IMG/VR virus record: IMGVR_UViG_2897375277_000001
Location: 1 to 19,118 of that record
DNA: 19,118 nucleotides
DNA from: a virus
Taxonomy: Duplodnaviria; Heunggongvirae; Uroviricota; Caudoviricetes
Reading direction: 5' to 3' (one strand)
This document shows, in pieces, positions 59 through 18,065 of this stretch (the stretch's first letter is position 1; each line of letters starts with the position of its first letter). The notes below the pieces were generated by a model that saw nothing but the letters and a program-made list of their open reading frames with translations, had not been told where the DNA came from and searched no databases. Position numbers and translations under genes: made by a program.

Positions 59-703
59 ATGAAATCCGAAACGCTAACCATCCAGCAAATTTTCCAAAAT
101 CAACGACAATATCGTGTTCCATTCTATCAACGCGCCTACGTATGGACGCAACGAAACCAATGGTCAGCTTTGCTGGAGGATATCTTCGAAAAAGCACAGA
201 GCCGACTTTCGGGAACAAAACCAACCCCTCATTTCCTCGGCGCGGTGGTGCTGGAACCTCAACTAAAAAACAGCTTGTTAGGTGTAGATACCATACATAT
301 TATTGACGGCCAGCAACGTTTAACCACTCTTCAATATATTCTGGCATCCATTCGATTATCATTGCGTGCTACAGGCCTTTCTGAATTGGAAGGGTTAGTA
401 TTGACTTGCTTGAAAAATACAAACGAAGCAACGATGAGAAATAAAAAGGTAGAATGCTTCAAACTGTGGCCAACTTTTCGAGACCAACTCATTTTATTCA
501 TAGTCTTAATGTTGATAATATTGACGATCTCCGTAATGTATTTTCTGATAGCTTCACGCAAAATGGTACGTTACGTTAAACATTTCAACCACCCGCCGTC
601 ACTAGAGGCATTATGGTTTTTTACTGAAGCCTTTATAAAATGGATTAAAATAGAAAACCACTCACCACAAGAAAATGCGGTAGCACTAATTGAGGCTGTC
701 TGA
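59..703 (+). CDS. DUF262 (GmrS-like) N-terminal module of a GmrSD-family type IV restriction enzyme; probably the 5' part of one larger gene continuing at 773
   Basis: ATG at 59 with AGGT 5 nt upstream. Translation contains PFYQRAYVW and IIDGQQRLTT, motifs I recognise as DUF262. Same reading frame as ORF 773.., separated by four in-frame stops (701, 740, 746, 770). From about nt 480 the translation turns hydrophobic and junk-like while another frame reads more protein-like. Confidence 0.6.
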   Translation: MKSETLTIQQIFQNQRQYRVPFYQRAYVWTQRNQWSALLEDIFEKAQSRLSGTKPTPHFLGAVVLEPQLKNSLLGVDTIHIIDGQQRLTTLQYILASIRLSLRATGLSELEGLVLTCLKNTNEATMRNKKVECFKLWPTFRDQLILFIVLMLIILTISVMYFLIASRKMVRYVKHFNHPPSLEALWFFTEAFIKWIKIENHSPQENAVALIEAV

Positions 704-772
704 CGGAAATCTGAAACTGGTAAGCATATTTCTCGAAGCTGAAGATGATGCCAAATAATTTTGAAACATTAA

Positions 773-1781
773 ATGGCGAGGAGCGGAACTTCATGCAACG
801 ATCTTATTCGCAACTATATCTTTATGTGCGCTGAGCATGAAAATATTAATGCTATTGAATTATATGAAAATGAGTGGAAGAGCTTTGAAGATAAATACTG
901 GTCGGAAAAGCAACGCCGTGGACGTATTAATAAACCACGCATGGAGTGGCTTGTACATGCGACATTGCAATCAGAAAGGCAGCGTGAAATTGATCTGTCT
1001 CGCCTTTACAATGAGTATCGTGATTATGTAAGTAAGGACTTGCCTTCACAACGAGCAGATCTGCAAGTAAAGCGCCTCAAACAATATGCATCACAATATA
1101 AAGAATTGGTTGGTGGTTTTGGCACAACCCCCATCTCACACTTTGGACATCGCATCGCAGCCTATGATGTGACGACACTTTATCCGCTTGCTTTGTTCAT
1201 TTCGATAGCTAACATCGCCGATGATGAGAAAGCAGCCATGTATAATGATCTTGTCTCCTACGTAGTACGAAGAGCCGTATGTGGCCTGACGCCAAAGAAT
1301 TACAACAATGTATTTATGAATATATTGCGACACTTGTCTAAAACGGAAATTTCCAGTGTTGAGTTACGTAATATCCTCAATAGCTTAAATGGCGAAGCCT
1401 CACGTTGGCCTAGGGACTCAGAATTTCTCAACGCTTGCATCAATGCTCCACTTTATCCTGGCAGGCTCGACGCACCGAAAATGCGCTCAATGTTAACGGA
1501 ACTTGAAAGAGAACTTTGTCGCCAAGTGAAGACAGAAAAGCCTGATGTTCCAAATCTTTCTAATCTCGATATCGATCATCTTATGCCTCAAAGTTGGTAT
1601 TCCTGTTGGCCTCTCGAAAATGGTCATATGGTGACAAATTCAGATGCTACGGTATTGAACCAAATTGTTCTGTCTGGAACCGATCTTACCCCTGAACAGC
1701 TACTGGTAAGGAAACGGCAACAAGCGATAGCTACGTTGGGAAATCTAACTTTGCTTAACCTTAGCGTAAACCGTTCTGTTC
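773..1781 (+). pseudogene. GmrSD-family type IV restriction enzyme, central region plus DUF1524 nuclease domain, interrupted by IS66 after nt 1781
   Basis: Translation contains DIDHLMPQSW and GNLTLLNLSVNRSV, typical of DUF1524. The six-frame ORF continues to 1912, but 1782..1912 is IS66 terminal sequence; the native frame resumes at 4232. Confidence 0.65.
1774..1781. repeat. Left copy of 8-bp target-site duplication TTCTGTTC flanking IS66
   Basis: Identical octamer at 4224..4231 immediately outside the other IS end; 8 bp is the duplication size known for the IS66 family. Confidence 0.85.
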
Positions 1782-1818
1782 GTAAGCGTACAGCGAGGGC
1801 CGTATTGACGGGGATGTG

Positions 1819-3357
1819 TTATTCAGCTGGCAGTGCTATGCGCCACGGAAGCAGTTCGCTGACCCGGTTGACCGGCCAGTCTGCTATGACGCCAAGCACA
1901 TGGCGAAGGTAGCTTTCTGGATCCACGTCATTCAGTTTGCACGTCCCGATCAGGCTGTACAGTAGCGCTCCCCGCTCACCACCATGGTCAGAGCCGAAGA
2001 ACAGGAAGTTTTTACGACCCAGACTGACCGCCCGCAGGGCATTTTCAGCGATGTTGTTGTCGATTTCCACCCAGCCATCGTTCGCATAGTACGTCAGTGC
2101 CGGCCACTGGTTAAGTGCGTACGCGAACGCCTTCGCCAACTCTGAGTGTCGCGACAGGGTCTTCATCTTTTCACGCAACCAGCTTTCCAGGGATTTCAAC
2201 AGCGGTTTCGTTTTTCGCTGACGTTCAGCAAGCCGCTGCTCTGCCGGCATTCCCCTTATATCCGCCTCTATGGCGTACAACTGACCGATCTGCTCCAGGG
2301 CTTCTTCCGTCAGTGCTGACGGGATGCGGACGTGCACATCGTGGATCTTTCGGCGGGCATGAGCCCAGCAGGCAGCTTCCGTTATCCCACCATTGCGATA
2401 CAGCTCGTTGAACCCGGCGTACGCATCCGCTTGCAGCACACCGCTGAAGCAAGCAAGATGAGTCTGCGGATGGATGCCTTTCCTGTCCGGGCTGTAAGCG
2501 AACCACACTGCAGGTGCCAACGCTGACCCGGCATTGCGGTCATCACGAACATACGCCCACAACCGCCCGGTCTTCGTCTTCTTATTACCCGGCAGCAGTA
2601 CCTGGACCGGGGTATCATCGGCATGGAGTTTGCCGTCAGTCATGACATAGCCATGAAGCGCCTCTTCCAGCGGAGACAGCAGCCGGCAGCATGCATCCAC
2701 CCAGCCCGACAGCAGTGAACGGCTCAGCTCCACACCTTGCCGGCCGTATATTTCTGACTGGCGATACAGCGGGGTGTGCTCTGCATACTTCGAGGTCAGC
2801 ACGCGGGCCAGCAGCCCCGGTCCGGCGATACCCCGCTCGATGGGCCGCGAAGGTGCAGGTGCCTGCACGATGGCATCGCACTGAGTACAGGCATGTTTTT
2901 CCCGTACCGTCCGGATAACCCGGAAGGCGCTACGCATCAACTCCAGCTGTTCGGCGGTATCCTCGCCCAGATAGCTCAGTGAACCGCCGCAGTTCGGGCA
3001 GCACGGCGCCGCAGGCAACAGTCGCTTTTCGTCACGGGGTAGTGATTCAGGGAACGGCTTACGGGTGCGGGTCTGACGCAACGGACGCTGTACTGCCGGG
3101 TCATACACCCTACCAGTCAGCGTATCGCTCTCTTTCTGAAGCCGGTTCAGATCGGCTTCCATTTGTGCGATACGGCGGGAGACTTTTTCGGAACGACTGC
3201 CGAAGTTCATCCGGCGGAGTTTATCCAGCTGCGCCTGCAGATGGTCTATTTCGCGCTCCCGGTTGCTCAGCTTTTCCTGCAGGGCGTGGATCAGCGCTTC
3301 CTGTTCGGCCAGGCGCTGTTTCAGCAGGAAGATGTCGTCAGAAGAGATGTCGTTCAT
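1819..3357 (-). CDS. tnpC: IS66-family transposase TnpC
   Basis: 512-aa uninterrupted ORF; translation has the cysteine-rich region (CCPNCGG...CTQCD) and overall character I recognise as IS66 TnpC. Confidence 0.9.
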
Positions 3358-3406
3358 AAGCCCGTATTTTACCGGGCTTATTCTGTGACAACCAGGATAA
3401 AGAGAT

Positions 3407-3754
3407 TTACAGCATGGTCAGGGAGGTCAGCAGCCGCTTAGGCTGTCGCCAGTCGATACCTTCCAGCAGCATCGCCAGCTGCGCCTGCGTAAGGAACACT
3501 TTGCCATCACGGGCTGACGGCCAGGCGAAGCGCCCACGCTCCAGCCGTTTGGTCAGGAGGCACAGCCCGTCACCGGTGGACCACAGCAGTTTAACCTGAC
3601 TGCCGCTGCGGCCCCGGAAAATGAAAACATGGCCGGACATGGGATCGTCTTTCAGCGCCGTCTGTACTTTCGCAGCCAGGCCGTTGAAGCCATTTCTCAT
3701 ATCGGTGATACCGGCAACCAGCCAAATTTTGGTCCCGGAAGGTAACGGGATCAT
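3407..3754 (-). CDS. tnpB: IS66 Orf2 (TnpB)
   Basis: 115-aa ORF directly upstream of tnpC, 4-bp overlap with tnpA, size and position typical of IS66 orf2. Confidence 0.85.
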
Positions 3755-4152
3755 CGCTTCAGTTCCTGTATCAGCAGAGTCAGGAGCTTTTCGCTGACAT
3801 TGCCATTGAAGCGGAGCGTCCCGTGCCGGAACGTTACCTCACAGCTGATACTGAGGGTTTCCGGGTCCTCTGCGAGCGATTCTGGCTGTTCGGCAGCTGC
3901 ATCGAGAGTCACAGGAAGTAGCTGGGGGCTCTCTGAAGAAGGTAATAGCAGCTTTCCCTTGCGCCATTGTTGTCGCCATTTGAACAACAGATTGGCGTTA
4001 ATGCCATTTTCAAGAGCAAGTTTTGAGATGGATATCCCGGGTTCACAGGAGGCAGCAACGAGCTGCTGTTTAAATTCGGGAGGATAATTAGGGCAGCCTT
4101 TTCGCCTGCCGGGAGTCACATTTTTCTGCATATCTGACACTTTGGTTCCCAC
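3751..4152 (-). CDS. tnpA: IS66 Orf1 (TnpA)
   Basis: 133-aa ORF at the 5' end of the IS operon; the true start may be an internal Met. Confidence 0.8.
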   Translation of the reverse strand: MGTKVSDMQKNVTPGRRKGCPNYPPEFKQQLVAASCEPGISISKLALENGINANLLFKWRQQWRKGKLLLPSSESPQLLPVTLDAAAEQPESLAEDPETLSISCEVTFRHGTLRFNGNVSEKLLTLLIQELKR

Positions 4153-4223
4153 TACTTATTTGGTGGACACCACTTTGTCTAATTCGTCAGATTCTGACCA
4201 GACGGTTCAGGCTGTACGCTTAC

Positions 4224-4231
4224 TTCTGTTC
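4224..4231. repeat. Right copy of 8-bp target-site duplication TTCTGTTC flanking IS66
   Basis: Identical to 1774..1781. Confidence 0.85.
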
Positions 4232-4395
4232 AGAATGCTGTATTTCTGAAAAAACGTGATGCTCTCATCGTCCACACCAATCTACGACTGAACATTCCAC
4301 TTATAGTTAAGGATAAATGGGATGAGGATGAAATCCTGGAGCGGGGTAAAAAGTTGGGGGAAATTGCATTGAAAGTATGGCCAAAACACGATTAA
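4232..4395 (+). pseudogene. Displaced 3' fragment of the GmrSD-family gene (54 codons plus TAA stop at 4393..4395)
   Basis: After removing the IS and one duplication copy, codon cgt-tct-gtt-c|ag joins in frame and reads ...GNLTLLNLSVNRSV-QNAVFLKKRDALIVHTNLRLNIPLIVKDKWDEDEILERGKKLGEIALKVWPKHD*. It has no start codon of its own, so it is absent from the ORF track. Confidence 0.7.
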
Positions 4396-4418
4396 TGCAA
4401 TTAATAAAATAATTATAA

Positions 4419-4440
4419 CGGCCTTACATTAGTAAGGCCG
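4419..4440. terminator. Putative bidirectional intrinsic terminator hairpin
   Basis: Perfect 9-bp stem (CGGCCTTAC / GTAAGGCCG) with 4-nt loop ATTA, 24 nt after the restriction-gene stop; AT-rich on both sides (T-rich when read on the minus strand). Confidence 0.4.
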
Positions 4441-4490
4441 CTACTCACTATTAAATCCTTTAATTTGCATCAAGAACAGCAGTGTCAGCC

Positions 4491-4619
4491 CTAGGTCTCG
4501 GACTTTGTACCGCTTATCTTGTCTTCAAAAATCAGCTCGCATCCTGCACAGTTCAGCGCATTACGTTGTAGATCTGTGTTCTGGTCATTTATTGATACGC
4601 GTACATAGCCAATAAGCAT
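4491..4619 (-). pseudogene. Remnant of a Pin/Gin/Hin-family serine DNA invertase gene (first 42 codons only)
   Basis: Minus-strand translation from ATG at 4619: MLIGYVRVSINDQNTDLQRNALNCAGCELIFEDKISGTKSET*. This matches the N-terminus of Pin/Gin invertases as I recall them, including the catalytic-serine motif YVRVS. Only about 95 bp separate its end from the restriction-gene stop, so the remaining roughly 150 codons cannot be present. Confidence 0.75.
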
Positions 4620-4645
4620 AGTGGCTCCCTCTGACAAAAGCAGGA

Positions 4646-4981
4646 ATGATGCCATTTGCTCGTTATTTCTGCATTTTCATAAACGTTGGTTTGGGAGAAG
4701 GTGCTAACTGGGTTATGTTACCTGGAGGAATGATAATTCAGCGTGTTTATCTTGGATTTCCTGTCGGCACCAATGTAAGACACATAACTTTCCCCCGGTC
4801 GTTTACAACAACGAACTATTCCATCTCAATTAACTGGAATGATATCGGTACTGTAACAACTGAAACACAATCGCCAGCAAATGTGGCGGTTGTTCATCAA
4901 ACAAAATCATTAACAGGGGCCAGCATCTGGCAGGCAGGTCCCGGGGGATTTAATGTGGACATTATAGCGGTGGGGTATTGA
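4646..4981 (+). CDS. Alternative tail-fiber C-terminal cassette, silent in the current orientation
   Basis: The crossover site 4674..4699 lies within codons 10-18; it is followed directly by a Tfa gene and converges on the expressed fiber/Tfa pair, the G-segment-like layout. No fiber N-terminal constant region is attached. Confidence 0.55.
4674..4699. repeat. Left crossover site of invertible segment (12-2-12 invertase site, core TT)
   Basis: TTTTCATAAACG-TT-GGTTTGGGAGAA. Its inner half is the exact reverse complement of 6510..6521; the overall form resembles hix/gix-type sites. Confidence 0.6.
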
Positions 4982-4982
4982 T

Positions 4983-5411
4983 ATGTACGTATGGAGCGCT
5001 AAAGCAAATGGCTTTTTCCCCATATCGGAGAAAGAAAAATTTGAGGCATCAGGTCTGTGGCCTGATGATGGTGTAATAGTCAGTGAGGAAGAACATAAAA
5101 AGTTATTTACGGATATTCTACCAGGAAAACAGATTGGAACACTGAATGGAAAACCAGCACTGATAGATATTCCTCAGCCGACCAAAAAGGAATTAATAGC
5201 TATTGCTGAAGTTAAAAAATCCCAATTACGGGAAAAAGCTGACAGTGAAATATCCTGGCGTCAGGATGCTGTTGATGCTGATATCGCAACTGATGAAGAA
5301 ACTTCAACTCTCACCAAATGGAAGAAATACCGTGTGCTGCTGATGCGTGTTGATACTTCAACAGCACCCGATATTGAATGGCCTACGCCTCCGGCAGTTC
5401 AGGCCAGATGA
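4983..5411 (+). CDS. Tail fiber assembly protein (Tfa), alternative copy
   Basis: 142-aa ORF ending ...[23 protein letters not shown], the conserved Tfa C-terminal pattern. Confidence 0.8.
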
Positions 5412-5988
5412 CATCCGGCGTGGTGCTGGTATCTGTTACCGTCACCGCGTCAATGTAATCCAGCACGGCGTTAAGTCGGGTTGTTTCTGCCTGCGTCAGC
5501 TTCCGCCCGGCCTGTAATTTCAGTTGAATCAGACTGATGGAAGCCATTGCAGCATCAATCAGCGACTGGCGCTGTGCTTCTGCCGCGTCTACTGCGGCAC
5601 TATGCTGTGCCTCAGTATCTGTCACCCATTTCTCACCATCCCATTTATCGTATGGCGTTAACGGGACGATAGTGGTTGTATTTTCAGGGTAATCACCCGG
5701 AGCTGTGATTTCTTTTGATTCTCCCGTTTCGGTGTTATAGACAACTTCACCGCGATGGTCTGGCACATATTCCCATGAGTTTAAATCTGCCGAACGGCAG
5801 ATTGCATAACCAACCTTATGTGTGCCAGGAGCATCTAAACAGGAATATGCAGGGATACCGACACCCACAGCAAGATATTCAGTTGATGCAGAAATATACT
5901 CCCGTGTCTCACTGTCATAGTTATAAACGGTAATCTCTCCTGCCTTTGTGGCAATAAATTTATTATTTAAGATGGCGTTATACATCAT
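5383..5988 (-). CDS. Tail fiber assembly protein (Tfa), expressed copy
   Basis: 201-aa ORF ending ...[18 protein letters not shown]; start overlaps the fiber stop (ATGA); 3' end overlaps the convergent Tfa by 29 bp. Confidence 0.8.
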
Positions 5989-6812
5989 GCAGCCCTCACA
6001 ATGTAATTAAATGAAATATTACGTGGGCGTGTCTCTGCTGCACCGACAATACTGGTACTCAACCCCGTTGCCGTTCGTTTGTTATTTTTATTTCCTTCAA
6101 TCAGACAGTTGTAATCATCATTACCAATTAACGAATTGGTGGCATCAATACTGTCCGGGGACAAGGCATTAGTTGTGGAACTTAAAGTCAGCATCTCGTC
6201 TGAACTTGGAAGATTTTTTAATGGTGTTTCATTGCGTGAAATACCCGCGTAAAAAAAGGACTCATGCCTGTGAGCTTCAAAAGAGTCATTCTGAAGACTT
6301 AGCAAGGCTCGCCCCGCATCCACTCCACGTCCATCATCCCAGCCACGAATAAATTCACCGCGTAAATCAGGCAATTTATTGGTCGGGTAAGCCTTTGCCA
6401 GTTCCGGGTATTCTTCAGCAGAAAAAGCCGCACCATTGCATTTCAGCCAGCCTGTTGGCGGAGTGGCTGAAGGCCACGGAACAGGCACCCCAACCGGTAA
6501 TGCAGAGCCTTCTCCCAAACCAAGGTTTTCGAGAGCTGTTTTCACCGTGCCATCCGATTTGATATCGCCAAACGGATTCTTGCGGCTTAACAGCAGCGCA
6601 CGAAGCGCGGTAAGCAACTGGTCGTGCCGCGCCTTCTCCAGGCTGGCACCGGAGGCCTCCACCACGCTGCAGAGTTCTTCCTGCAACATGTCAAAGTAGT
6701 CATCATCCAGATCGGTGGCAGGCGTGCCTGTCTGGGGGTTACCACGGGTAAAACCGTTCTTACCCGGGCCGAACTTATCCTTCTGCGCGGTTTTCGTGTC
6801 TATACGATGCAT
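5985..6812 (-). CDS. Tail fiber protein (constant N-terminus plus variable C-terminus currently in the expressed orientation)
   Basis: 275-aa ORF with GGAG 7 nt before the ATG; the C-terminal region has [19 protein letters not shown], which resembles the receptor-binding region of Mu S / P2 H-type fibers. The crossover site 6510..6535 lies inside the gene. Confidence 0.75.
6510..6535. repeat. Right crossover site of invertible segment (12-2-12, core AA)
   Basis: TTCTCCCAAACC-AA-GGTTTTCGAGAG, which closely resembles the hixL sequence as I recall it (TTCTTGAAAACCAAGGTTTTTGATAA). Confidence 0.6.
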
Positions 6813-6815
6813 GGA

Positions 6816-7400
6816 TTACTCCGGATATTTAAAAATTACGTAGGTATGCGACGGGCAGAGTTTGTTAAGCACACATTCGACGACGGTGTCGCCCCAGACA
6901 CGCAGCGCGGAATCACAGGGATCGCCACATGTCATCCAGGTGGTGTTGGTGGCGGCTGGCATGTTGACCTGCCAGTAATACCGCCATTCCGGCGCATTCA
7001 CCGCGTCAGTACAGGCAGATGAGCAGGTGAAAGTGCTTTTATCGTATCGCGTGATGGTGGCATCCGGTCTGCCCAGGGCAGCAAGCTGTGCAAGGTAAAA
7101 ATCCTCATTGATGCCGCCCGCCAGATTAACCTTCGCATCCAGCCGTTGCTGACGCTGGCGAAGGGTCTGCGTTCCCGCCGGAATACATTCATCCGGCAGG
7201 CCGCACAGACGCTCCCAGCGGTTTATCAGTTCAGTGGTGGTGCGCGGATCCAGCTCCCGCATCAGGGCATCCGCACGCTGATGAACGCGGGTTAATGACG
7301 GTGCCGCACCGGCAATCGCCGGATCGCTGACTGACCACGCCGGACCGGGCGGCAACAGTGCCGACAACAGACGGATATAATCATCGTTTGTCACGTCCAT
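6816..7400 (-). CDS. YmfQ/DUF2313-family tail protein (Mu gp48-like)
   Basis: 194-aa ORF between the baseplate J-like gene and the tail fiber, overlapping its upstream neighbour; composition and position fit. Confidence 0.55.
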
Positions 7401-8449
7401 GAAATCGTCCCCAGAACTGCCAGCTCATTTTTTGCAATGGAGATATTGTCCGCCGGGGCAAGCAACTGATGGCTGTATTCCCCGTTCGCACCGGAAATCG
7501 CTTCACTGATACGTGACACCTTCAGTTCTCCCTGCGGATAACCATCACGCAGCAGGAACGAACGCAACTCCGCGGTGATGGCGGCTCGTATTTCCGGTGT
7601 ATCCGGCGTCACACGGATATGAAAATCCACTTTATGCGCCACCGGCCTGAATACATACAAATCAGAGCCTGCCACCGGGGCCAGTGGCTCGATATGTTGT
7701 CTTGCCGCCGTTTCCGTTGATTCTTCCGGAATGGGATTAATCAGGTCACTGCTGGCAATCATCACACCGACAGTTCCCGTTCCCATCCAGTGACGGTATG
7801 TCCATGCGCGGGTAATGCCGGGCACTTCTTTAGCCCAGACGACATAGTCCCCGTCAGCCCCGCCCTGAGGCGTCCAGTAATACCGCTCAATGACGCGGGC
7901 GCGCCACGTTTCCAGCTCTTCAGTATCAAATCCACCTGTCAGGGTATCTGCCACGCCGGAAGACGGCAGACCATTCACCGGCGTGACCAGGATTAATGAC
8001 GTACCGTCGTCAGCGTTACCGACCGCGCCTGCACTTGAGCAGGCGATCGGCACGCGCAGGACACCACCGGAGCTGGTTGCATCGGCAGTTGCCGTGTACT
8101 GAACCAGGTCATCGCGCTGAATAACACTCCCGGCGGTCACCTTCAGGCCATCGCTGACACCTTCCCAGCGCATATACCCGCTGGCAGTCGTGGCCCCCTT
8201 GCGCGGACACCGTTTCATCGCAGCATGTCGCGCCAGCCAGGACTCATCGCACAGGTCAGGCAGCATGTTCATTGCCAGATAATCGATGTACCCGTAAACC
8301 GTATGCAGCGCCGCCGCATACACCTTTGCCCGCACGTCTTCATCCATGCGCCGGAGCGTGTCGCTGACGTCCAGCCTGGCGAATAAATCGTTACGGAGCA
8401 TACTGATATTTTCTGCCAGCGTCGGGCGCTGAAATTCACTGTCCGCCAT
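7391..8449 (-). CDS. Baseplate J-like protein (Mu gp47 / P2 gpJ-like)
   Basis: 352-aa ORF in the expected position, 14-bp overlap with the upstream gene. Confidence 0.7.
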
Positions 8450-8864
8450 GCATTATCGCACTCCACAGATCATCAAAAGAAATCATTACCGGTCCGTCAC
8501 GACGCCAGAGAGTGATACTGTTACCCAGTTCATTAATCCCGGTGCGGCGGATATCCAGATCAATACGGGACACCACACCGTCATCAATCATCCATTGCAG
8601 GCATTCGCGGATATACCCCCTTACCGTCTGCACCAGCTGATTGGTCAGTTTGCCGCGCTGAAGCAGCCACAGCCGGGAGCCGTAACGGTCATTCTGTACC
8701 GCAGGCCAGGTATCCCCCCACCATCCCATCGGGACGTCGGCATTGTCATCAGGCTCCGCCCGCCGCCAGGTAAACAGGGAAATCACCACGGCGCGGGTCA
8801 GCGGATCCAGCGGTGCGCTGGCGCAGGTGCGTTTACCGTTCACCGTCAGCCACAGTTCCATCAT
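8436..8864 (-). CDS. Phage GP46-family baseplate protein
   Basis: 142-aa ORF, overlapping neighbours on both sides, expected position after the spike gene. Confidence 0.6.
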   Translation of the reverse strand: MMELWLTVNGKRTCASAPLDPLTRAVVISLFTWRRAEPDDNADVPMGWWGDTWPAVQNDRYGSRLWLLQRGKLTNQLVQTVRGYIRECLQWMIDDGVVSRIDLDIRRTGINELGNSITLWRRDGPVMISFDDLWSAIMHGGQ

Positions 8865-9409
8865 GCCTCCATCGCTTTATCCGGTTTGTCGGTGTTACTG
8901 CCCTGACCGTTCTCTCTGTGACGATGGCCGTTATAGGCAAGCCGCATCGCTGACATGGTGGTGCCGCCGGAGTCGCACAGGTCTTTCACCTGTCCGGTCA
9001 CTTCCAGGTCCATTTCAAAACGTGCTTTAGGTGAATTGCGAAACGTGATCGTTTTACCTGCACCGTCCACCACGATCCCCTCCCGGGTCAGCGTCACGGA
9101 CTGCCCCTGATCGTCATAGACAGCCACCTCACCCGTCTGCAGCCCTTTCAGGCGGTAGCGCCGGTCCGACACCGTAACAACCACCGCATGAGAACGGTCG
9201 CCATCCGGAAACAACACCACCGCTTCCGCACCGCTGTTTGCCCTTGAGGTAAAACCGTAGGGTTCAAGATGTTCAACCCCTGCTTTGGGTTCACCGGCAA
9301 TCAGGGACACATCCACGGTCTGACATTTCGTGGCGGCACTGATGCTTTTCACCACGGCCCGCCCAATCAGGCCGAGGAGTTGTCGCTGCATGGCTTCAAT
9401 CGTCCTCAT
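8861..9409 (-). CDS. Baseplate assembly protein V / spike (Mu gp45-like)
   Basis: 182-aa ORF; the N-terminal pattern MRTIEAMQRQLLGLIGRAVV...EPYGFTSRANSGAEAVVLFPDGDRSH is typical of the phage baseplate V family. Confidence 0.7.
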   Translation of the reverse strand: MRTIEAMQRQLLGLIGRAVVKSISAATKCQTVDVSLIAGEPKAGVEHLEPYGFTSRANSGAEAVVLFPDGDRSHAVVVTVSDRRYRLKGLQTGEVAVYDDQGQSVTLTREGIVVDGAGKTITFRNSPKARFEMDLEVTGQVKDLCDSGGTTMSAMRLAYNGHRHRENGQGSNTDKPDKAMEA

Positions 9410-10488
9410 CAGAACGGATCCTCCTGTACTCTGGCTTTTTTCTTTTTCCGCGAGCCGGGGGCTTCGGGTTCAGGCAGATAAGCATCAGGCGGGCCGACAC
9501 GGATTTCCGTCAGGGTGCCGTTCTGGTCCTGAGTAAACGTGACTTCCGAAACAAGCAGTTCGGTATTGTCGAAACCACAGACCGGATCGAAGACAATCAC
9601 CCGCTGGTTGGGCTGCCACAGCGTACCGTTACCCTGTCGCCAGCCCTGCACCACATAGGTGGTTTCATCCGTCCGCGCCGCCCGTTGCCGGGCTTCAAAG
9701 TCAGCACGGGCAATACAGCCTGCCCCCGTGGCCTGCCCTGTCTGCCTGATATACATCGGACGGTAACGGGCAATAAATGCGTCCTCTGTGCGGGCCCGCA
9801 GCGCGGTGGTGGTGGCCTCACCGAAATCATCGTCGTTTCCGGCACGCTGCCCCGCCACCTGGTAAACTGAAAACCGCTCCCGGATACTCTTCTCCGTATC
9901 ACAGGAAAGGATGTTTTCCCCAAGTACCAGCGCGGTATGTGCCCGCGTTGAGCCAATACCGCCAATCACCAGCCTGCCGTGCGGGTCGTCATAAGCCAGC
10001 GCCTGCTGCTGACCGAGTATTTTGTTGATTACCTCAATCACCGTTTCACCGTGATCAGGCTGGACATCAGGAATAACACCCGACGGCGCACCGCTGTTCA
10101 CCACCTCAATGCCGAAAGGCGCAGCAAGCGCCTGCGCAATCTGTACCAGCGATCGTCCGTTAAACTGTGTCGGTTCGGCTGCACAGTCAATCAGGTCAGC
10201 GGTCAGACTACGTCCGGCAATACCGGTGCTGACCGAACGGGCATCGTAACGAACGGGCGTCGCCTCCACCCAGCCAGTGATCACCAGCTCATCACCAATC
10301 AGCACTTCCACTTTTGAACCGTTTTTAATGCGCGGCTGAAGCGTGGTGATACCCTCATCTCCCGGCCACTGGCGGGTGATCTCCACACTGAAATCCCGCG
10401 CCAGTCGTTCAACACCGGCACCGATGCGCACCGATGTCCAGCCATTCCACTCCCGGCCATTTACCCGTAGCGTGACGTTATCGTTCAT
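9409..10488 (-). CDS. Mu P (gp44)/P2 gpD-like tail protein
   Basis: 359-aa ORF, gene order and translation character. Confidence 0.55.
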   Translation of the reverse strand: MNDNVTLRVNGREWNGWTSVRIGAGVERLARDFSVEITRQWPGDEGITTLQPRIKNGSKVEVLIGDELVITGWVEATPVRYDARSVSTGIAGRSLTADLIDCAAEPTQFNGRSLVQIAQALAAPFGIEVVNSGAPSGVIPDVQPDHGETVIEVINKILGQQQALAYDDPHGRLVIGGIGSTRAHTALVLGENILSCDTEKSIRERFSVYQVAGQRAGNDDDFGEATTTALRARTEDAFIARYRPMYIRQTGQATGAGCIARADFEARQRAARTDETTYVVQGWRQGNGTLWQPNQRVIVFDPVCGFDNTELLVSEVTFTQDQNGTLTEIRVGPPDAYLPEPEAPGSRKKKKARVQEDPF

Positions 10489-11812
10489 TGCACTGGCACC
10501 TTCAGAGGGATCACCGGCACAAAGCCGGGATGCGTAATGGCATTACGCCGGATAATGTCCCCGTCACGCGCCGCGTTATCAAACCAGGTCGCCGCCAGCA
10601 CCAGCGCGGGTAAAACCTCATCCGGCGTGCGCTGAATGATCCGTGCAGACTGTTCAAGGCGCGTGTTGATATCCGCATTCAGATCTGCTTTCACCCGGCG
10701 CAGCGCCAGAAACAGCGCATCACTGGTTGTACGGGACAACTCCTTATCAATTGCCGTATTCAGTGTGTCGCGAATGTCAGTCAGTTCTTCCCACGTTGGC
10801 AGGTCAACCGTGCTTTTCACCGCCGGTGCATTGTTCAGTGCCGGATGCGTGACGGAAGGCCAGCCAGTGCTCTGCGCGGGTGTTGTTGCCTGCCCCACTG
10901 CGGCATTCTGCATCACCGCGGAAGTTGTTGGCGCAGGCAATCGGGTGACGGCATACGCCGCTTCGCTGATTGCGGTCGTACGAAGGATGCTGGCAACCAC
11001 GTTACGCTGCTGTGTCGCCGTGGCGGTGGTTTTACTGTCCGTTTTCCAGACGCCGCGCGGTTGCAGATCGCTGCCAAGGCTGACACCGGAAAGCGTTTTG
11101 ATCATGGTGACCAGGTCGCTGGCGTTACCATAAAGGCGTTTCCCGGTACGCCACATTTTCTGCACCTGCTCAACGAAATTTTTGCCTGACGATGGCGGCG
11201 GCAGAAGTACCGAGATATCCCCTGCAACAGCCTGGCGGCATCCGATACGGCAGAATCCACCACTTTCATCGCATCAGAAACATACCCAAGCATTGTGCCG
11301 GCATTACCGACGACGTCGTTCTGCACAAAATCTGCCACGCCATCGATACTGAAACTACTGAAACTGTCACTGATGCAGTCATCCAGTGCAGAACAGGATG
11401 ACATCAGCGTCTGCGCCGTCGCCGCACCTGATGTGGGGTAAGAGAGTTCTCCCGCTTCGACAAACTTCAGGTCAAAGCGGACAATACGCCCTTCACTCTT
11501 CGATGTGCTGACCCGAACCTCTCCGTCAACACAGACTTTCAGCTCACCGTAAGTCGGATGGACAAGCGTGCCAGGACCGGGTTTATTCAGCGCGTCAATC
11601 AGGCGATCGCGCTGGTCAAAGCAGTCATCTCCCACCACATAAGCCGTGATGGACGGGCGGAAAGTGATTTTCCCCAGGTCTTCGGTATAGGGTTTGTCGC
11701 GGTTCGGGTATTCGTGCGTTTCCACACGACGACCGGTTCCCGTACTTTCTTCTTCAACCTTAAACGGCACACCGCGAAATGACGCGTCCTGAAGTCTGTC
11801 TTTCCACGTCAT
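10485..11812 (-). CDS. Mu N (gp43)-like DNA circulation protein, with an apparent frameshift near 11219..11222
   Basis: Likely start is ATG at 11812..11810 (MTWKDRLQDASFRGVPFKV) with GGAG 6 nt upstream. The frame of ORF 11102..11854 turns junk-like after ...SDAARLLQG, and the neighbouring frame reads on as DISVLLPPPSSGKNFVEQVQKMWRTGK...; the switch is at a CCCC run (plus strand). Confidence 0.55.
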
Positions 11813-11827
11813 ATAAACTCCGTACAT

Positions 11828-11849
11828 AAAAAATCCCACCGGAGTGGGA
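11828..11849 (-). terminator. Putative intrinsic terminator/attenuator between tape measure and N-like genes
   Basis: Minus strand reads TCCCAC-TCCG-GTGGGA followed by TTTTTT, 24 nt after the tape-measure stop. Confidence 0.45.
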
Positions 11850-11872
11850 CTCATTAACAGATTAATTTTTCA

Positions 11873-13696
11873 TTACCTGCCAAAGCACGTATAGCCAACA
11901 TCATGGCTGACATCAAAACCGCTGGATCGCGTTTCCATAACCCGCATCCCCGGAGGCGAATTCACAAAAGAGACCTTGATCTCACCATCAACTTTTGGCG
12001 CAGAAGCTTTGTTAATCATGAAGGGATTCGAGCCTGTGGCACCGGAGGCGTTGTTTGACTGAGCCGGATCCACCGCCGGATAAGGTGTGTATCCCGCGCC
12101 GGTATTCCCGTCCCATAAGCATCATAAGCACCCGCGCCCCACTGCGCAGAGTTAATGCATCGACCGTGTCACCGGAACTGTCGGTAAACCACTCAATAAT
12201 TGGCTTCAGCTTGTCCCACATATCCTGAAACCACTTAACAACCGGTCCCCAGTTATTGATCACCATCCCCAGCGGCGACCAGGCAAAAACCTTCTTAAGA
12301 AGTTCCCAGCCAGTCTCAAAATAAGGACCAATGGTTTCCAGAGTTTCTTGAAATAAGGTCCGACAACATCCCAATTAGTGATAATTAATCCCGCAGCCAG
12401 GGCTATCGCCGTCGCAATCATGCCAATCGGCGTCATCGACATGATCCTGCTGACAATACTGATGGCACCGCCAACGCCCATCAATCCCAGTTTCAGAATC
12501 GCAAGACCGGCAGCAAGCCCGACGACACCGCGAATAACCCGGGGATTTTCATCCGCAAACTTCGTGAATTTTTCCCCTAACTCCCCCAGCCATTGCGTGA
12601 TATTTTTGGCGTCACCAGAAAATGCGCCGCCAATAGCCGCAAGGCCGTTAGTTGCGGTCCCCGTCATTGCCTCCCACAGGTTGGACAGCGTACCAAGCTG
12701 GGCCTGAACACGTTTATTCAGGCTGGCCTGTTTATTCATCTTCTGCTGGATCTGATCGTAGCCATCCTTTCCTTTATCGATTAGTGCATTGACCACCTGA
12801 AGGGTTTCGGCATCATCACCAAATATTGCCTTAAGTACACCTGTTCGCTTAACGTCGGTCAGTTTTCGCAGCTTTGCCAGTTGCCTGAACATGTTATCAA
12901 GACCGCCAAAACTTCCTTTGCCGTCAGTAAAATCGAGCTGTACCCCGAGTTTCTGGCGGGCCATGACTTTATTGACGTCCCTGATTTTCTTAACGCTTAA
13001 TCCGGACTGGATAACTTTTCGCAGGGCATTACCTGCCGACTCCCGTTCATCCCCATCTGATCCATCATAACGCTGATGGGGGCAAGGCTCTGTGCAGCCT
13101 GAAGACCGTCCTTGTTCACCATCTTCAGAACAGAACTGGTTTTAGTGAAGAAGGACAACATGTTGTATCGTCAACGCCCAGATAAAACGCCTTCTGGATA
13201 GTGTCGAACAGCCCCATCATGTCTTCTGACGCCGTTCCGGTAGCATCCTGCATCTTTGCAGCAAACTCAGCAGCCGCTTCCGGTGTTTTTTCAGTTGTAC
13301 CGCAAGATAAGCTGTCGCTTTACCCACACCGCCAAGAATGTTTTCTGCGGGATCCCTGACGCACCAGCATCTGCATCATGTTCTGGAAATCAGCCGTTGT
13401 ACGGGTAGCTGGTTACCCAGGCCAATAGCCAGTTTATTGATGTCCTGAAAGCGCTTTCCGACCTCACCGTTCGCATCCATCATGGCAACTTTCAGCCCGT
13501 GGCGGCGTTTTCCTGATCGGCATAAGATTTCAGGAAAGCGTCAGACCCGCAGCCAGTCCGCCACCAAGCGCCAGCCCACCCTGTGACGCTTCTTCCGCCT
13601 GGCGTTTAAATCCCGGATTTTCTTTTGCATTTTCGACAGCGCGGGAGAAAGCCTGTCGACACCGGTGATCAACGCCTTAAGCTCAAATTCAGCCAT
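11873..13696 (-). CDS. Tail tape measure protein, with multiple apparent frameshifts
   Basis: Start ATG 13696..13694 (MAEFELKALITGVDRLSPALSKMQKK) with GGAG upstream. ORFs 12260..12964, 12012..12374 and 11873..12073 are successive pieces of one protein in different frames; 12965..13696 has no ORF of 60 aa or more in any frame yet reads as tape-measure sequence across frame switches. Confidence 0.6.
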
Positions 13697-13835
13697 GTGT
13701 GCGTTTCTCCTGCTCTATCCTGTTTGCCTGACTGACCAGCAAGGAATTTCACTGATCGGCATATTCAGCAATTCGAAGGGATTAATGCGCCAGTAGCTGC
13801 GCAGTCAAAGAAGCGATCAGTGAGGTATTCAGCCG

Positions 13836-14102
13836 TCAGGCCTGGAGGAAAAAACCGGCCACAAGCCACGCCGCTGCATTCAGGTCTGCCGGAGACATCT
13901 GGTCGACAGAGCTTTGCGGCACTTTCGCCAGCCGCACAATGTATTTCGACACCACATGCGCCAGAAGTCTGACGGACTCATCCTGATTCATCTGGTAGGG
14001 ATACCCAGCTCGCGGACATCCTTCCGGTGGTTCATCAAACTCCAGTACGGAGAGTGTCTCGCCATGAGCAATAATCGGTTTCTTTAACTCAAGCTCTTTC
14101 AT
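13836..14102 (-). CDS. Tail assembly chaperone (Mu gp41 / P2 gpE-like)
   Basis: ATG at 14102..14100 (MKELELKKPIIAHGETLSVLEFDEP...); lies between tube and tape measure; carries a slippery heptamer 2 codons before its stop. Confidence 0.55.
   Translation of the reverse strand: MKELELKKPIIAHGETLSVLEFDEPPEGCPRAGYPYQMNQDESVRLLAHVVSKYIVRLAKVPQSSVDQMSPADLNAAAWLVAGFFLQA
13848..13854 (-). other. Candidate programmed -1 ribosomal frameshift site T-TTT-TTC in the chaperone gene
   Basis: Minus-strand zero-frame codons GGT-TTT-TTC immediately before ...LQA-stop; the -1 frame stays open for 29 more codons to a TGA at 13765..13767. Confidence 0.4.
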
Positions 14103-14454
14103 TACTGGTAATCCCTTCTTCACCGTGGAACTCAAGATCAACCGTGCCTTCTTCGGCATTATGGTTCGCTTCGCCGTGCAGCCAGGCAGACGACAGTACA
14201 TAGACCTGACCGTTCGCCAGCTCGGCAGTGATTGTCATCTCATCAGACGAGGTGATTTTGCTCACCGGAAAATTCTTCGCACCTTGAAGGTCCCTTTGAC
14301 ATAAGGCGCACGGTGAGTTTCCTTGCGGTCCACTGAACCGTCCAGGCCGATGATGTCATCATTGACCGTCCTGTTCATGGCACCTCAATGCCGCCGGTCA
14401 GCGATAGCTGCTGACCGTCAATTTTGAAATAACAGGTTCCCCGATACGGGCCAT
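14089..14454 (-). CDS. Tail tube protein, with apparent frameshifts
   Basis: Start ATG overlaps the sheath stop (TAATG at 14457..14452). Translation pieces MARIGEP..., FKIDGQQLSLTGGIEV and TVNDDIIGLDGSVDRKETHRAPYVKGTFKV fall in different frames; one switch is at a CCCC run at 14439..14442. Confidence 0.45.
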
Positions 14455-16072
14455 TATGCGGACTCCTCTGAATACTGAAGACGGAACTGGTTAACCACGG
14501 CAAAGACACGCAACTGGTTAACATAGTCAGGCGGGAACAGCGTGTTCAGGCGGTTCGGATCGCTGGCATCACGCTCCACAACCAGGTACTGCTTAAAAAG
14601 TTCGTAGTTTTCCACGATCCCGCACGCTCAAGCTGACGGTAGGTTGCCAGCAGTTCCCTTTGATCACCGCCTGGGTGACAATCGCCTGACCGGACCAAAG
14701 CGGTACCGTCGCTGGCAAGCTTGTGACGCCCGTACTTACTGGTAATGACGGATTTCAGTTTGCGCAGTACATACGCACTGGTATGCAGCGTCTCGCTGTC
14801 GAGGTAGCTGTTATCCGCAACCCCGTAAGCGTTTTTCCTGTACGTGGTGACATCACGCTGAATGCGCAGTACCCGCTTTCGACATACGCCGTTGCCACGC
14901 CATGAGACAGCAGGGTCTGTTGTTCGGTCATCGTGAACCGTTTCCCCTTCGGCGCAGGCAGCATACCCACCAGCTCACCGTCTGCGTGGACGTGCCGGAT
15001 CGTTGCGGATAAACACCGCTGCGCGGGCGGTACGGCTTGCGCCAGCTCGTCGGCAGCGTCTGGTCTCTTTTCGTACCCGCCAGGGTAATGTGCTGCTGGT
15101 TAAACTGGTCACCTGCGTCACCAGTTCTGACAGCGTGCCGATCTTTGCCGTATACACATGACCATACAGCTGACGCGCATAGCTCCAGCGACCGCTGGTA
15201 TCGTTCATCTCGGTCACCAGCGTGTTAACGGAGCCGTGTCGTTGAACGGCAGGCCGATATAATCAAACGGCTCATCCGCCATTGCAGCCACCGCGCCGGT
15301 GAGAACAGGAGAACCCGTTCCGGCGGTACCCGTCGCCACGGCAATCTGTACGCCGCTGGCAGCACTTCGCCCCACCAAGCCGTAGTAATTGAGGCTGACA
15401 GGAATTTCATTCCGCAAAGCCCTTATGACGCGCGGTCAGTGTGACCACGCCAGCGAAGATGAAGCTGTAAACGCAGAGTCGGAACGGCATTGATGGCATC
15501 CTGGATACTGCCGGCAATCGTCGCGACGTTATCGCCATTGGTCACCGGTGCCTGCACGCGGGTACGTCCACATAAACATTCACCGTGCGGTTTCGGTTGC
15601 CGCCCGGTCACCGTCAGCGTAACCGTTGCCGCCGCGCCTGTGGCTTCCGGAACGGCAATCACATACAGCTCGCAAACGGGTCAGTCTGGCGATAAGCCTC
15701 GACCATACGCGCCAGCTGACTTCCCGCACCACAAATCTGGAGTGCATAGTCTGCCGACGGCATCAGTACCAGACTGTTGGCAACAATCTCTGCACCGTTA
15801 TTGCATGACCAATCAGCAGCGATGCTCCGCTGTCCTGTGCAGTATTCGCCGCCTGGTTATCCATTTCCGCATAAACAACGGAACCAGCGTATTCGACGGA
15901 ATGGTGTTAAAGCTTATCGTCATCGGTATTCACCTTTTTATTCACGCGCCGGATATCACCCGCTGCTTCACGGCGCAGCCAGTAGTTGTTCTCGTCAACA
16001 TTTCGCCCTTCGCGGCAAAGGTCGCCGCGGCAGGGTCAGGAACTGACCGCCCTTTAACAGGTTGACAAACAT
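14455..16072 (-). CDS. Tail sheath protein, with multiple apparent frameshifts
   Basis: Start ATG 16072..16070 with GAGGA upstream. The translation across frames reads ISFNTIPSNTLVPLF-YAEMDN...NTAQDSGASLLIGHAIT... and MTEMNDTSGRWSYARQLYGHVYTAKIGTLSELV..., which looks like a contractile sheath. Only ORFs of 80 aa or less survive in this 1.6-kb stretch. Confidence 0.55.
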
Positions 16073-16074
16073 GA

Positions 16075-17130
16075 GGATCCTCAGAAGGAAGGGTTATTTC
16101 GGTGTGATGTTCGATATCGCCGTCAGGCCGTTACGGGCTCGAGATAATCAACATCAATCGCCAGCGTTTGCAGTTCATCCAGACTGTTCAGATCATCCTG
16201 CTGGCGGGTATCGTCTTCAGTCAGCTCGCTGATGACCGAAAAATCGAACTGATAAATCAGCTCATGACGATTCAGATCCAGCAGCGTGCCGCCGTCATAG
16301 GTAATCGGGTTACCGCACGCCTCCGGGTTCCAGCCAGCAGAGCCTTAAGAGCATCTGCGGACATCGTCCACCACATCATACGAGGCAAACTGACCGCGCT
16401 CATCACGCCCGTTACTCAGTATGACAACCACGGAGAAACCTCTTTCAGCTCCTGCAGTAGTCGGTCTGGCTTTGTTTCTCCCGAGAATCATCACCCGGTA
16501 CAACATATGCCGCCGGGAGTTTCAGCTTCCGACCTCCGGCAGATTTTGAACTGGGCGCGCCTGCAACCCGGTTTTCAAAATACGGACAGCGGGCACGCAG
16601 TGCAGCAATAACAGGCGTCAGTTTCATCTGTGTCGTCGCTCCGGCTTCAGTGATTACGCAATTCCGCGCCAGAAAATAGCGTGTCCAGCTGCGGTTCTTT
16701 TCAAGAGTTTCCACCATGAAGTTATTACGTGGAGCCAGTCGCCAGCCGCTGCCACCGGATGCACCACGATGATGGCTGCGACGACGCTTTGCCCTCTCTT
16801 CACGCCATAGAACAAAAAGCCGGATAAAATCACGGTGATGCGGCGTTTCCCTCACCATTACGCTGGTTAGGGGCTATACGAGCCATAAACCGGGCGATGT
16901 TTACTGGCTCTGGGTACCATATAACCAATCGAACGTGCCAGGCGTCCGGTCTGATAACCGGGGTTTTCACCCGGTGCCGACCGCGCACGGCGCATCACAG
17001 CCGACGGCATCACGCATATGACGCTGACCAATCGTGACAAACGCCGCCGGACACGGGCGCGGTTAAAGCGCATCTCCGCGGCTGCTGAAATCAACGTGCA
17101 AAAAGGAAGTCGCCATTGTTGCCTCCGTGA
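16075..17130 (-). other. Fragmented minus-strand virion morphogenesis / tail completion genes (not resolved)
   Basis: Protein-like minus-strand translation in pieces across frames (for example ...GNPITYDGGTLLDLNRHELIYQFDFSVISELTEDD...), with no long intact ORF. Confidence 0.3.
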
Positions 17131-17136
17131 CTCTGC

Positions 17137-17499
17137 CTACATTCGCCCAGCTCCGTACACTCCAGCAGCAGAAAGCGCCGCGCACCGTTCAGATCGCGCT
17201 GACGTTTCACCGGTACACACTATCACCGCAGACCACCTCATAATCAGCGGTGATCCCCCGGCGGTAGCGAATGGTGATGTAATGGGTGATGGCGTCTCCG
17301 GTCTGCGCGGTTTCCTGCCAGGTGGTGGCACTGGTCTGGACAACCTTCGCCCATGCCGGAACGCAACCGGGTATTGAGGCTCCACGCCAAAGTTATCCGA
17401 GGGCATATCCACCCGCTGGCGGATCAGGACGCGTTTATTCAGTTCGCCGGGGTCCGGCAGAATGTAGGTTGCGCTGGTCTGCGCCTGACGAATTTTCAT
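17137..17499 (-). CDS. Head-tail adaptor / head closure protein, with apparent frameshift
   Basis: N-terminus MKIRQAQTSATYILPDPGELNKRVLIRQRVDMPSDNFG resembles the adaptor family; the ORF then turns proline/arginine-rich and junk-like while another frame reads TGDAITHYITIRYRRGITADYEVVCGDSVYR. Confidence 0.4.
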   Translation of the reverse strand: MKIRQAQTSATYILPDPGELNKRVLIRQRVDMPSDNFGVEPQYPVAFRHGRRLSRPVPPPGRKPRRPETPSPITSPFATAGGSPLIMRWSAVIVCTGETSARSERCAALSAAGVYGAGRM

Positions 17500-17817
17500 T
17501 GCGGAAAGTACCTGTACGGGCCGACAAGCCAGCCAAAACTCTGCGGCATGTCGAGTTTCTCCACTTCCGTAACCGAAGAGCGGTTTTCGTAAAAATGGCT
17601 GATAAGCATCAGCATCCCCAGACGAATATCATCGGTAGTGCAGCCCGTCCGGATCGCTGTCCGGAATGGTTTCATCCGGTGCATAGAGCTTCCGGTTCAG
17701 ATACGTTTCCGTCCGCTTTTGTGCCGCACATGCCAGCAGTTGCAGATGGCGGTCATCAGTATCGAAATCCTCATCCAGCCGGAGTTGGGCTTTAATCTCT
17801 TCCATTGTCAGAAGCAT
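17496..17817 (-). CDS. gp6-like head-tail connector protein, with apparent frameshift
   Basis: N-terminus MLLTMEEIKAQLRLDEDFDTDDRHLQLLACAAQKRTETYLNR (ORF 17629..17817) and C-terminus ...DDIRLGMLMLISHFYENRSSVT...GPYRYF (ORF 17496..17684) are in different frames. Confidence 0.55.
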
Positions 17818-18016: not shown

Positions 18017-18038
18017 GATTCTTCACCCGTCAGAACAG

Positions 18039-18058: not shown

Positions 18059-18065
18059 TGAGTGA

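Follow-up and report, generated by a model that had tools for sequence, protein, structure and literature searches.

A pinE remnant beside a tail-fiber inversion switch: replacement of the invertase gene, retained cis elements and inversion after the truncation

The DNA analyzed here (the window) is the whole 19,118-nucleotide (nt) virus record IMGVR_UViG_2897375277_000001, the right end of a prophage of the e14/SfII type that sits at icd and has a Mu-like baseplate and tail. On its minus strand, at 4491..4619, lies pin', a 42-codon pseudogene consisting of 41 codons of a PinE-type serine invertase gene followed by Thr and a TAG stop codon, and next to it lies an invertible tail-fiber segment, the P segment. 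We found that the invertase gene was truncated and most of it replaced by a restriction-gene cassette, that the cis elements of the switch were retained, and that the segment was inverted after the truncation, including two orientations in the assembly of a single strain. In the mechanism we propose, an illegitimate replacement would have put a cassette of ~2.25 kb, made up of a GmrSD gene with its own terminator, in the place of pinE coding nt ~123-540. This replacement would have happened once, and the junction would then have spread widely. The stump DNA would keep a 72-bp stretch that acts as the Fis-bound enhancer in Gin/Cin/Hin/Pin systems, at its native distance, and the 1.84-kb P segment would still invert, with a borrowed invertase assembled on the crossover sites together with Fis on the stump. 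Taken as a whole, the explanation combines a once-only replacement of pinE, retained cis elements and continued inversion by an invertase from elsewhere, and we consider it likely.

The identity of the stump is supported at both the protein and the DNA level. The minus-strand translation of 4491-4619 is MLIGYVRVSINDQNTDLQRNALNCAGCELIFEDKISGTKSET* (42 residues and a stop), and its residues 3-41 match the Pfam family Resolvase (PF00239) with E = 4.7e-8, above the curated cut-off. The match covers positions 2-48 of the 145 in the profile, so that Ser9 is present and the remaining catalytic domain is missing; S9 is the catalytic serine of Gin (PMC3575834). Coding nt 1-122 align without gaps to pinE of Escherichia coli K-12 and of strain WS0115A, and over this length only two differences separate pin' from K-12 pinE (99% identity, scored as 121 of 122 nt), namely C29T, which changes Thr10 to Ile, and a synonymous change at nt 111. 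Beyond nt 122 the similarity is patchy and lasts for about 13-28 nt. The megablast match to intact invertase genes stops at 4498 for e14-type pinE and at 4485 for a P2-like invertase, and neither the DNA alignment nor megablast detected pin homology past window ~4470-4498.

What is left amounts to 22% of pin, with about 78% lost. The open reading frame (ORF) ends after 42 codons and lacks the rest of a complete catalytic core with its oligomerization helix (~100 further residues). The C-terminal helix-turn-helix DNA-binding domain is also absent, and its place is occupied by a spacer and the 3' end of the GmrSD gene. Since both the catalytic core and the DNA-binding domain are missing, pin' is not a member of the functional invertase family and, judged by its sequence, is dead as a gene. 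As a bare fact the truncation is already on record: RefSeq labels the same sequence in E. coli a partial recombinase ("recombinase family protein, incomplete, missing C-terminus").

The junction between stump and cassette is common. Counting matches with 80% or more coverage, we found the same junction in 286 of 5,426 complete E. coli genomes, gap-free and at 97-100% identity over 444 nt, and this uniformity is why we favor a single origin. The carriers include UTI89, S88, IHE3034, NU14, APEC O1, APEC O18 and the type strain ATCC 11775. An identical junction is also present in the polished chromosome of the strain from which the window comes, Escherichia albertii 2014C-4356. Other genomes gave partial pinE matches of various kinds, a mixture in which real truncations were not separable from mosaic alleles. 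The junction counts bear directly on the idea that the invertase gene is really complete and that the truncation is an artifact of sequencing or assembly. The window does hold many one-base insertion or deletion (indel) errors; however, positions 800-11,000 are error-free relative to the polished chromosome, and 286 complete genomes share the junction, which leaves a negligible probability for such an artifact.

How the rest of pinE was lost is best seen in UTI89. There, the GmrSD cassette of ~2.25 kb (locus L005, ~2520 to 4766) is bordered on its near side by pinE nt 1-122 and on its far side by the last ~15 nt of pinE, including the stop codon, and by the ~77 nt that follow pinE in WS0115A. 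Because the cassette is thus bracketed by the 5' part of pinE on one side and by its 3' end and downstream DNA on the other, we conclude that the middle of the gene was replaced, with about 420 of 555 nt exchanged for the cassette. H22, which among E. coli is closest to the window, lacks the far-side piece of pinE, and the window itself begins only 58 nt upstream of the GmrSD gene. The same end state would result from two steps, in which the cassette first inserted into an intact pinE or just after it and most of the gene was deleted later; moreover, the GmrSD gene occurs in 296 genomes and the junction in 286, about 10 fewer. Yet we saw no genome in which a full-length pinE adjoins this GmrSD cassette, an IS3 insertion in the GmrSD gene accounts for at least one of the additional genomes, and pinE sequence on both cassette flanks in UTI89 is the simplest signature of a single substitution. 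We therefore regard a two-step history as unlikely.

In the window, the 95-bp spacer (4396..4490) separates pin' from the convergent GmrSD gene, whose stop is at 4395, and forms the right end of the inserted cassette. It contains a hairpin of 13 pairs at 4415-4444, which scans as a minus-strand terminator and has a fold z of -3.6. A promoter scan detected no sigma-70-like promoter in 4300-4760, and no RNA family reached the Rfam gathering score anywhere in the window. The patchy similarity past pin nt 122 possibly reflects microhomology at the junction. A divergent invertase allele as the source of pin nt 123-150 was considered and rejected, as it gave chance-level matches only among 80 diverse loci. 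When 4396-4505 was compared with the same 80 loci, no invertase allele matching the spacer or the sequence past the stump was found, all matches again being at chance level.

An earlier sequence-only reading of this DNA had described 4491-4619 as the N-terminus of a Pin/Gin-type invertase with its catalytic serine, had placed the end of homology near codon 41, and had noted a gap of about 95 bp with a hairpin before the stop of the restriction gene. All three descriptions agree with the Pfam and pinE matches, with the gap-free alignment through nt 122 and with the spacer as mapped above. The alignment to intact e14-like prophages that it called for places the breakpoint at pin nt 122, and its claim that a replacement removed some 80% of the gene is borne out by the two pinE flanks and the ~420 of 555 exchanged nucleotides in UTI89. 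A complete invertase ORF emerging after error correction, which it named as grounds for refutation, is excluded by the 286 genomes and the polished source-strain chromosome.

We next considered what the retained DNA contains. The P1 record AF234173 annotates an "enhancer of Cin-mediated C-segment inversion" at cin coding nt 19-90. Since the first 122 columns of the pin/gin/cin alignment are gap-free, the equivalent of this enhancer is window 4601-4530 (enhancer-equivalent stretch 4530..4601, pin coding nt 19-90). The stretch is identical to K-12 pinE at 71 of 72 positions, to cin at 56 and to gin at 54 (75-78% for the latter two), and the stump contains all of it and runs on for about 32 bp. 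The crossover-site center and the ATG of pin' are 67 bp apart, the same as in Mu. The enhancer of Hin is likewise located in its own gene, hin, some 100 bp away from hixL, and has a Fis dimer at either end (PMC3798978; PMC9368917).

Within the stretch, C29T is the only difference from pinE. Two 15-bp segments, 4584-4598 (GTATCAATAAATGAC) and 4535-4549 (GTGCAGGATGCGAGC), are candidates for the Fis cores, placed by analogy with the Hin and Gin enhancers. On this placement C29T would fall at the center of the proximal core and make it more A/T-rich; it may represent drift in a dead gene or a tuning of the enhancer. This substitution (window 4591, Thr10 to Ile, beside the catalytic serine) is common to the window, the E. 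albertii chromosome and E. coli H22, and is absent from UTI89-type stumps, which carry the ancestral C, and from intact pinE.

The remaining parts of the switch are complete. The two 26-bp crossover sites lie at 4674..4699 (proximal site, pix; minus-strand reading TTCTCCCAAACC-AA-CGTTTATGAAAA, central AA at 4686-4687) and at 6510..6535 within the tail-fiber gene (distal site; TTCTCCCAAACC-AA-GGTTTTCGAGAG, central AA at 6522-6523). Their inner half-sites and central AA are identical, and they overlap inverted repeats (4681-4701 and 6508-6528) that share 20-21 identical bp; the pix core matches the e14 inversion repeats quoted in PMC12529663. Between them, the invertible P segment (4687..6522, 1,836 bp) holds two chaperone genes and two alternative fiber C-termini. 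As oriented in the window, the tail-fiber gene (5985..6812, minus strand, annotated as a phage tail protein) joins a constant N-terminal part to the variable part Sv, giving 275 amino acids with Pfam Collar and S_tail_recep_bd matches. It is accompanied by the TfaE-like tail-fiber assembly gene for Sv (5383..5988, minus strand; Pfam Caudo_TAP, E = 1.4e-30). On the opposite strand lie the alternative, gp53-like C-terminus Sv' (4646..4981, plus strand; Pfam Gp53-like_C), which has no N-terminus of its own, and its assembly gene (4983..5411, plus strand; Caudo_TAP, E = 8.6e-33).

In-silico inversion of 4687-6522 fuses the constant fiber part in frame to the alternative C-terminus, giving a 194-amino-acid fiber whose gene is the one called on the source-strain chromosome. 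The Sv' fragment would accordingly be expressed only after inversion, as a fusion to the constant fiber part. The annotated 111-amino-acid "hypothetical / gp53-like" ORF begins with an ATG that lies in the pin leader, ahead of the crossover site (window 4646-4700). The first ~18 codons of 4646..4981 are probably not real coding sequence, true coding beginning only around 4700, where the crossover site lies. Both crossover sites, both alternative fiber ends and both chaperone genes are intact, and where a cognate full-length invertase gene would stand beside the segment, there is only the 42-codon stump.

Comparison of truncated prophages shows P-segment inversions that postdate the truncation, between E. 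coli lineages as well as in the strain of origin. UTI89 and IHE3034 are both truncated and have flanks that are 100% identical, with the segment between the repeats reversed; once UTI89 is inverted in silico, not one mismatch to IHE3034 is left in 9,444 bp, and this holds for any crossover point inside a 16-bp interval in which the central AA lies. Among junction carriers with the UTI89-type P segment, 79 genomes have one orientation and 24 the other (24 of 103). For the window-type segment, 12 carriers are oriented as in the window, and 3 of the 15 have the predicted inverted junction. The source strain gives the strongest evidence: the chromosome from the same assembly (CP024282.1) carries the same stump and the same insertion of the insertion sequence (IS) ISEc8 in the GmrSD gene, with the P segment opposite to that in the window; after in-silico inversion of 4687-6522, the two match with 0 mismatches over 6,129 bp. 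Since chromosome and window share the ISEc8 insertion with zero substitutions, the flip is younger than the insertion, which in turn came after the truncation. The one culture that was sequenced probably contained both orientations.

The orientations could in principle predate the truncation, if homologous recombination had later carried the GmrSD-pin' junction into prophages of unlike orientation. In keeping with this, P-segment types do differ among junction carriers, and the differences between window-type and UTI89-type stumps cluster upstream of nt ~30, suggesting breakpoints inside the stump. Nevertheless, UTI89 and IHE3034 show zero differences over 9.4 kb besides the inversion, and the E. 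albertii chromosome and the window share the recent ISEc8 insertion with zero substitutions. We hold this scenario to be highly improbable.

The exchange between stump types can be observed in its own right. Eight of the nine differences between window-type and UTI89-type stumps lie in the 5' untranslated region and the first 30 coding nt (window 4590-4630), and nt 30-281 are nearly identical. The pattern looks like a recombination breakpoint inside the stump, which may thus also serve as a homology arm for the exchange of whole P segments between prophages.

If, alternatively, the stump were inert and the switch dead, the orientations would have arisen by rare RecA-dependent recombination between the short inverted repeats. 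The repeats have 20-21 identical bp, sequence alone does not separate the two mechanisms, and many carriers have no detectable pinE- or pinQ-like chromosomal gene. However, 20 bp is below the length usually given for efficient RecA recombination, and both orientations are common (24 of 103 and 3 of 15 carriers) and apparently occurred together in one culture. Moreover, the crossover interval holds the canonical central AA of a 26-bp gix/pix-type site, and the same sites were inverted experimentally by PinE and PinQ (PMC12529663). We thus judge a RecA origin to be very unlikely, if less so than orientations older than the truncation.

Site-specific inversion without a resident invertase would need a helper, most likely a Pin-family invertase carried by a further prophage or a plasmid of that cell. 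Such helpers are plausible: PinQ and PinR, encoded by the Qin and Rac prophages, invert the e14 segment in trans, and the same study cites two further cases, Fin on the H segment and PinE on both the G and the H segment (PMC12529663). A scan for PinE relatives with one genome per species kept 80 loci, all from strains and genera other than the junction-bearing E. coli type strain. We searched for such helpers with composite queries, in which a GmrSD tag was combined with the pinE C-terminal part and/or pinQ; they yield counts of places per chromosome only, with the matched query part indistinguishable. In H22, two further places on the chromosome match either the C-terminal part of pinE or pinQ. 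UTI89 and IHE3034 each have one extra place with the full GmrSD and pinE C-terminal query and none with the pinQ query, so that their extra place is probably pinE-like. S88 and APEC O1 each have one extra place with the pinQ query. PMV-1, ZJ3920, ExPEC XM and SF-166 have no extra place with either composite query. Overall, 93% of E. coli genomes match the composite query that was used for H22, which also contained the GmrSD tag.

Several observations weigh against continued inversion by a borrowed invertase acting with the stump. Among the matches listed, 34 of 60 junction-bearing chromosomes have no pinE-like DNA, and some of these also have no pinQ-like DNA; in carriers with neither, the switch may be frozen. 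No serine invertase was seen in the gene table of the IncX4 plasmid of 2014C-4356 (its other four plasmids were replicon-typed only and its chromosome was unscanned); the five real plasmids of this strain are of conjugative IncX4, IncF and IncI types by replicon typing, and none is P1-like. The window/H22 sub-lineage carries C29T at the center of the proposed proximal Fis core, and Fis binding to the stump, like the requirement for the stump, is deduced from homology and position. The record from which the window was taken was deposited as a closed plasmid and could conceivably be a real second copy. Finally, a K-12 pinE deletion strain was reported to be locked even though PinQ and PinR were present (PMC12529663). 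That result fits a loss of the enhancer in cis, and it fits equally well helpers that are too weak at native levels.

Despite these points, the sequence-only reading fared well on the switch. Its statement that in Gin/Hin systems the enhancer occupies the 5' portion of the invertase gene is supported by the P1 cin annotation, and the gap-free alignment puts the equivalent stretch inside the remnant. The suggestion it marked as speculative, that the remnant might still support inversion by an invertase supplied from elsewhere, turned out to be the best-supported part, given that the stretch is retained and inversion after the truncation is seen; Fis binding and the helper are the steps we infer. 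We put forward more tentatively, as possible rather than probable, that the stump has been kept as a stand-alone recombinational enhancer, a coding fossil reused in cis. The prophage would then have traded its invertase for a defense gene and would borrow invertases, and the position of the breakpoint, ~32 bp past the enhancer, would reflect which replacements pass selection. The switch kept in this way may be a working fiber switch or, as reported for the e14 of K-12, one that yields an adsorption-blocking protein.

The window was also informative as a database record. An exact protein match of the stump identifies it as the whole of GenBank CP024288.1 (RefSeq NZ_CP024288.1), the 19,118-bp "plasmid unnamed6" of E. 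albertii 2014C-4356, filed as "complete sequence, circular" and present in PLSDB as a non-mobilizable plasmid without a replicon type; its listed gene table contains IS and phage genes only. The strain was assembled with PacBio HGAP3 and polished with Pilon. CP024288.1 duplicates about 19 kb of the chromosomal prophage, with 0 substitutions over the 14.6 kb compared. Apart from the orientation of the P segment, the two differ by one-base indels confined to the first 800 bp and to the region beyond 11 kb. Ten indels lie within those 800 bp; in a comparison with E. coli H22, 91 indels and 5 mismatches were counted over 11893-19118. The indels fragment the GmrSD, DNA-circularization, tape-measure, sheath and capsid genes of the window, and on the chromosome the tape-measure gene, the DNA-circularization gene and the N-terminal part of GmrSD are intact (compared up to window 14,597).

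The indels at 1-800 and 11200-19118 look like consensus errors at low-coverage contig ends, a pattern expected of a minor-variant long-read contig centered on the P segment. A minority of long reads with the other orientation would have built a secondary contig, its consensus quality declining away from the segment. CP024288.1 thus looks like an assembly by-product of inversion heterogeneity and not like a plasmid. As for the chromosomal surroundings of the prophage, the icd remnant lies about 850 bp beyond the GmrSD gene in E. albertii (L093, 15415-15579). In H22 (locus L001, 1-3435) a further prophage, of lambdoid type and with a stop inside its integrase, comes right after the icd remnant, so that two prophages stand in tandem at icd.

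The restriction gene itself is interrupted in the window. Its 5' part (59..1781, plus strand; codons 1 to ~574) carries Pfam GmrSD_N and GmrSD_C matches, and its 3' part (4224..4395, plus strand) contributes the final ~55 codons with the stop codon and aligns collinearly with H22 (99.9% identity). The domains, DUF262 (GmrSD_N) and DUF1524 (GmrSD_C), were matched across two window fragments, and the intact H22 orthologue matches PADLOC mREase_IV over its full length with E = 0. The interruption, at about codon 574, is ISEc8 (1782..4223, minus strand; IS66 family, 2,442 bp), and the same insertion is present on the strain's chromosome. The element has all the features of its family: terminal repeats (GTAAGCGTACAGC; GTAAGCG...), Pfam matches for the three IS66 ORFs (tnpA, tnpB and the DDE transposase), and an 8-bp target duplication, TTCTGTTC, at 1774-1781 and 4224-4231. 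Annotated ISEc8 copies elsewhere are 100% identical, and another copy resides on the strain's IncX4 plasmid (NZ_CP024283.1, 34335-36647).

The frameshifts in GmrSD at 485-799 were considered as signs of real decay and rejected, as the chromosomal copy is clean and the frameshifts are contig errors. An IS3-family element interrupts the orthologous GmrSD gene of E. coli MS20654, which suggests repeated IS inactivation of this gene. The sequence-only reading was right to see a restriction gene as the cargo beside the stump, now confirmed as GmrSD by Pfam and PADLOC, with the qualification that the copy in the window is broken by ISEc8.

Cargo other than GmrSD occupies the same position in related prophages. 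The order in K-12 e14 is pinE, mcrA and icd remnant (locus L004, 6347-7180), and in WS0115A pinE is followed by Avs2 (locus L002, 1-3045). The position beside pin is a cargo slot in that it holds mcrA in K-12, Avs2 in WS0115A and GmrSD here, and the pin-adjacent slot of e14-type prophages behaves like a defense-cargo hotspot at the prophage end, filled with Avs2, McrA or GmrSD depending on the strain. UTI89 has further cargo beyond GmrSD, including a gene for a GIY-YIG protein and a DinI-like pseudogene.

Such a locus offers a natural experiment, in which the cis half of a Fis/enhancer switch, namely two crossover sites and an enhancer stretch, operates in the wild apart from the recombinase gene. 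The truncated state is found in about 5% of complete E. coli genomes, including the model pathogens UTI89, S88, IHE3034 and APEC O1. It follows that a phase switch of a tail fiber or surface protein can depend on co-resident mobile elements, which is relevant to predicting prophage host range and, given the PinQ work, may be relevant to phage resistance. A pseudogene labeled a "partial recombinase" can indicate a regulatory element that is still live. In practical terms, one GenBank/PLSDB "plasmid" is identified as, very probably, an assembly by-product of DNA inversion. We regard the finding as moderately interesting and not surprising, because trans-complementation among these invertases has long been known.

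Finally, we compared the locus with known systems. The cargo gene belongs to the same family as Eco94GmrSD and UTI89_C2960 (the "UT enzyme"), which are single-chain GmrSD type IV enzymes. UTI89_C2960 adjoins pin' and, unlike the window copy, is not disrupted by ISEc8. He et al. (2015) placed it "immediately downstream of" the tail-fiber genes of an SfII-like prophage, and the words invertase and recombinase are absent from the text of that paper (PMC4437046). Among the closest known relatives of the switch is the P segment with PinE of K-12 e14. The two share the prophage family, the icd integration site (with icd remnants in H22 and on the E. albertii chromosome), the crossover core and the layout of fiber gene, two chaperone genes, orphan fiber end and pin just outside the segment. 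They differ in that the slot of mcrA here holds a convergent GmrSD gene that reaches into pin and leaves 22% of it, and in that e14 of K-12 is itself a remnant, whereas the present prophage has a full Mu/SfII-type tail and head module.

The systems Gin/G of Mu, Cin/C of P1 and Hin/H of Salmonella share with the present locus the location of the enhancer in the 5' coding sequence of the invertase, whereas here the enhancer stretch survives without the gene around it. The P1 enhancer lies about 500 bp from cixL, as opposed to about 86-157 bp between the enhancer-equivalent stretch and the site here. The locus has the paired crossover sites, the alternative in-frame fiber ends and both orientations expected of a Fis/enhancer-type switch, with the enhancer assigned by homology only. 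Non-cognate inversion in trans (PinQ and PinR on e14, Fin on H, Pin on G and H) likewise relies on an invertase encoded elsewhere in the cell. We found no discussion of an orphan variant in the literature that could be searched. In the trans-inversion cases the resident invertase was intact or had been removed in the laboratory, whereas here it was removed naturally and the segment still switches, making this locus a widespread, natural "orphan" variant of a well-known system.

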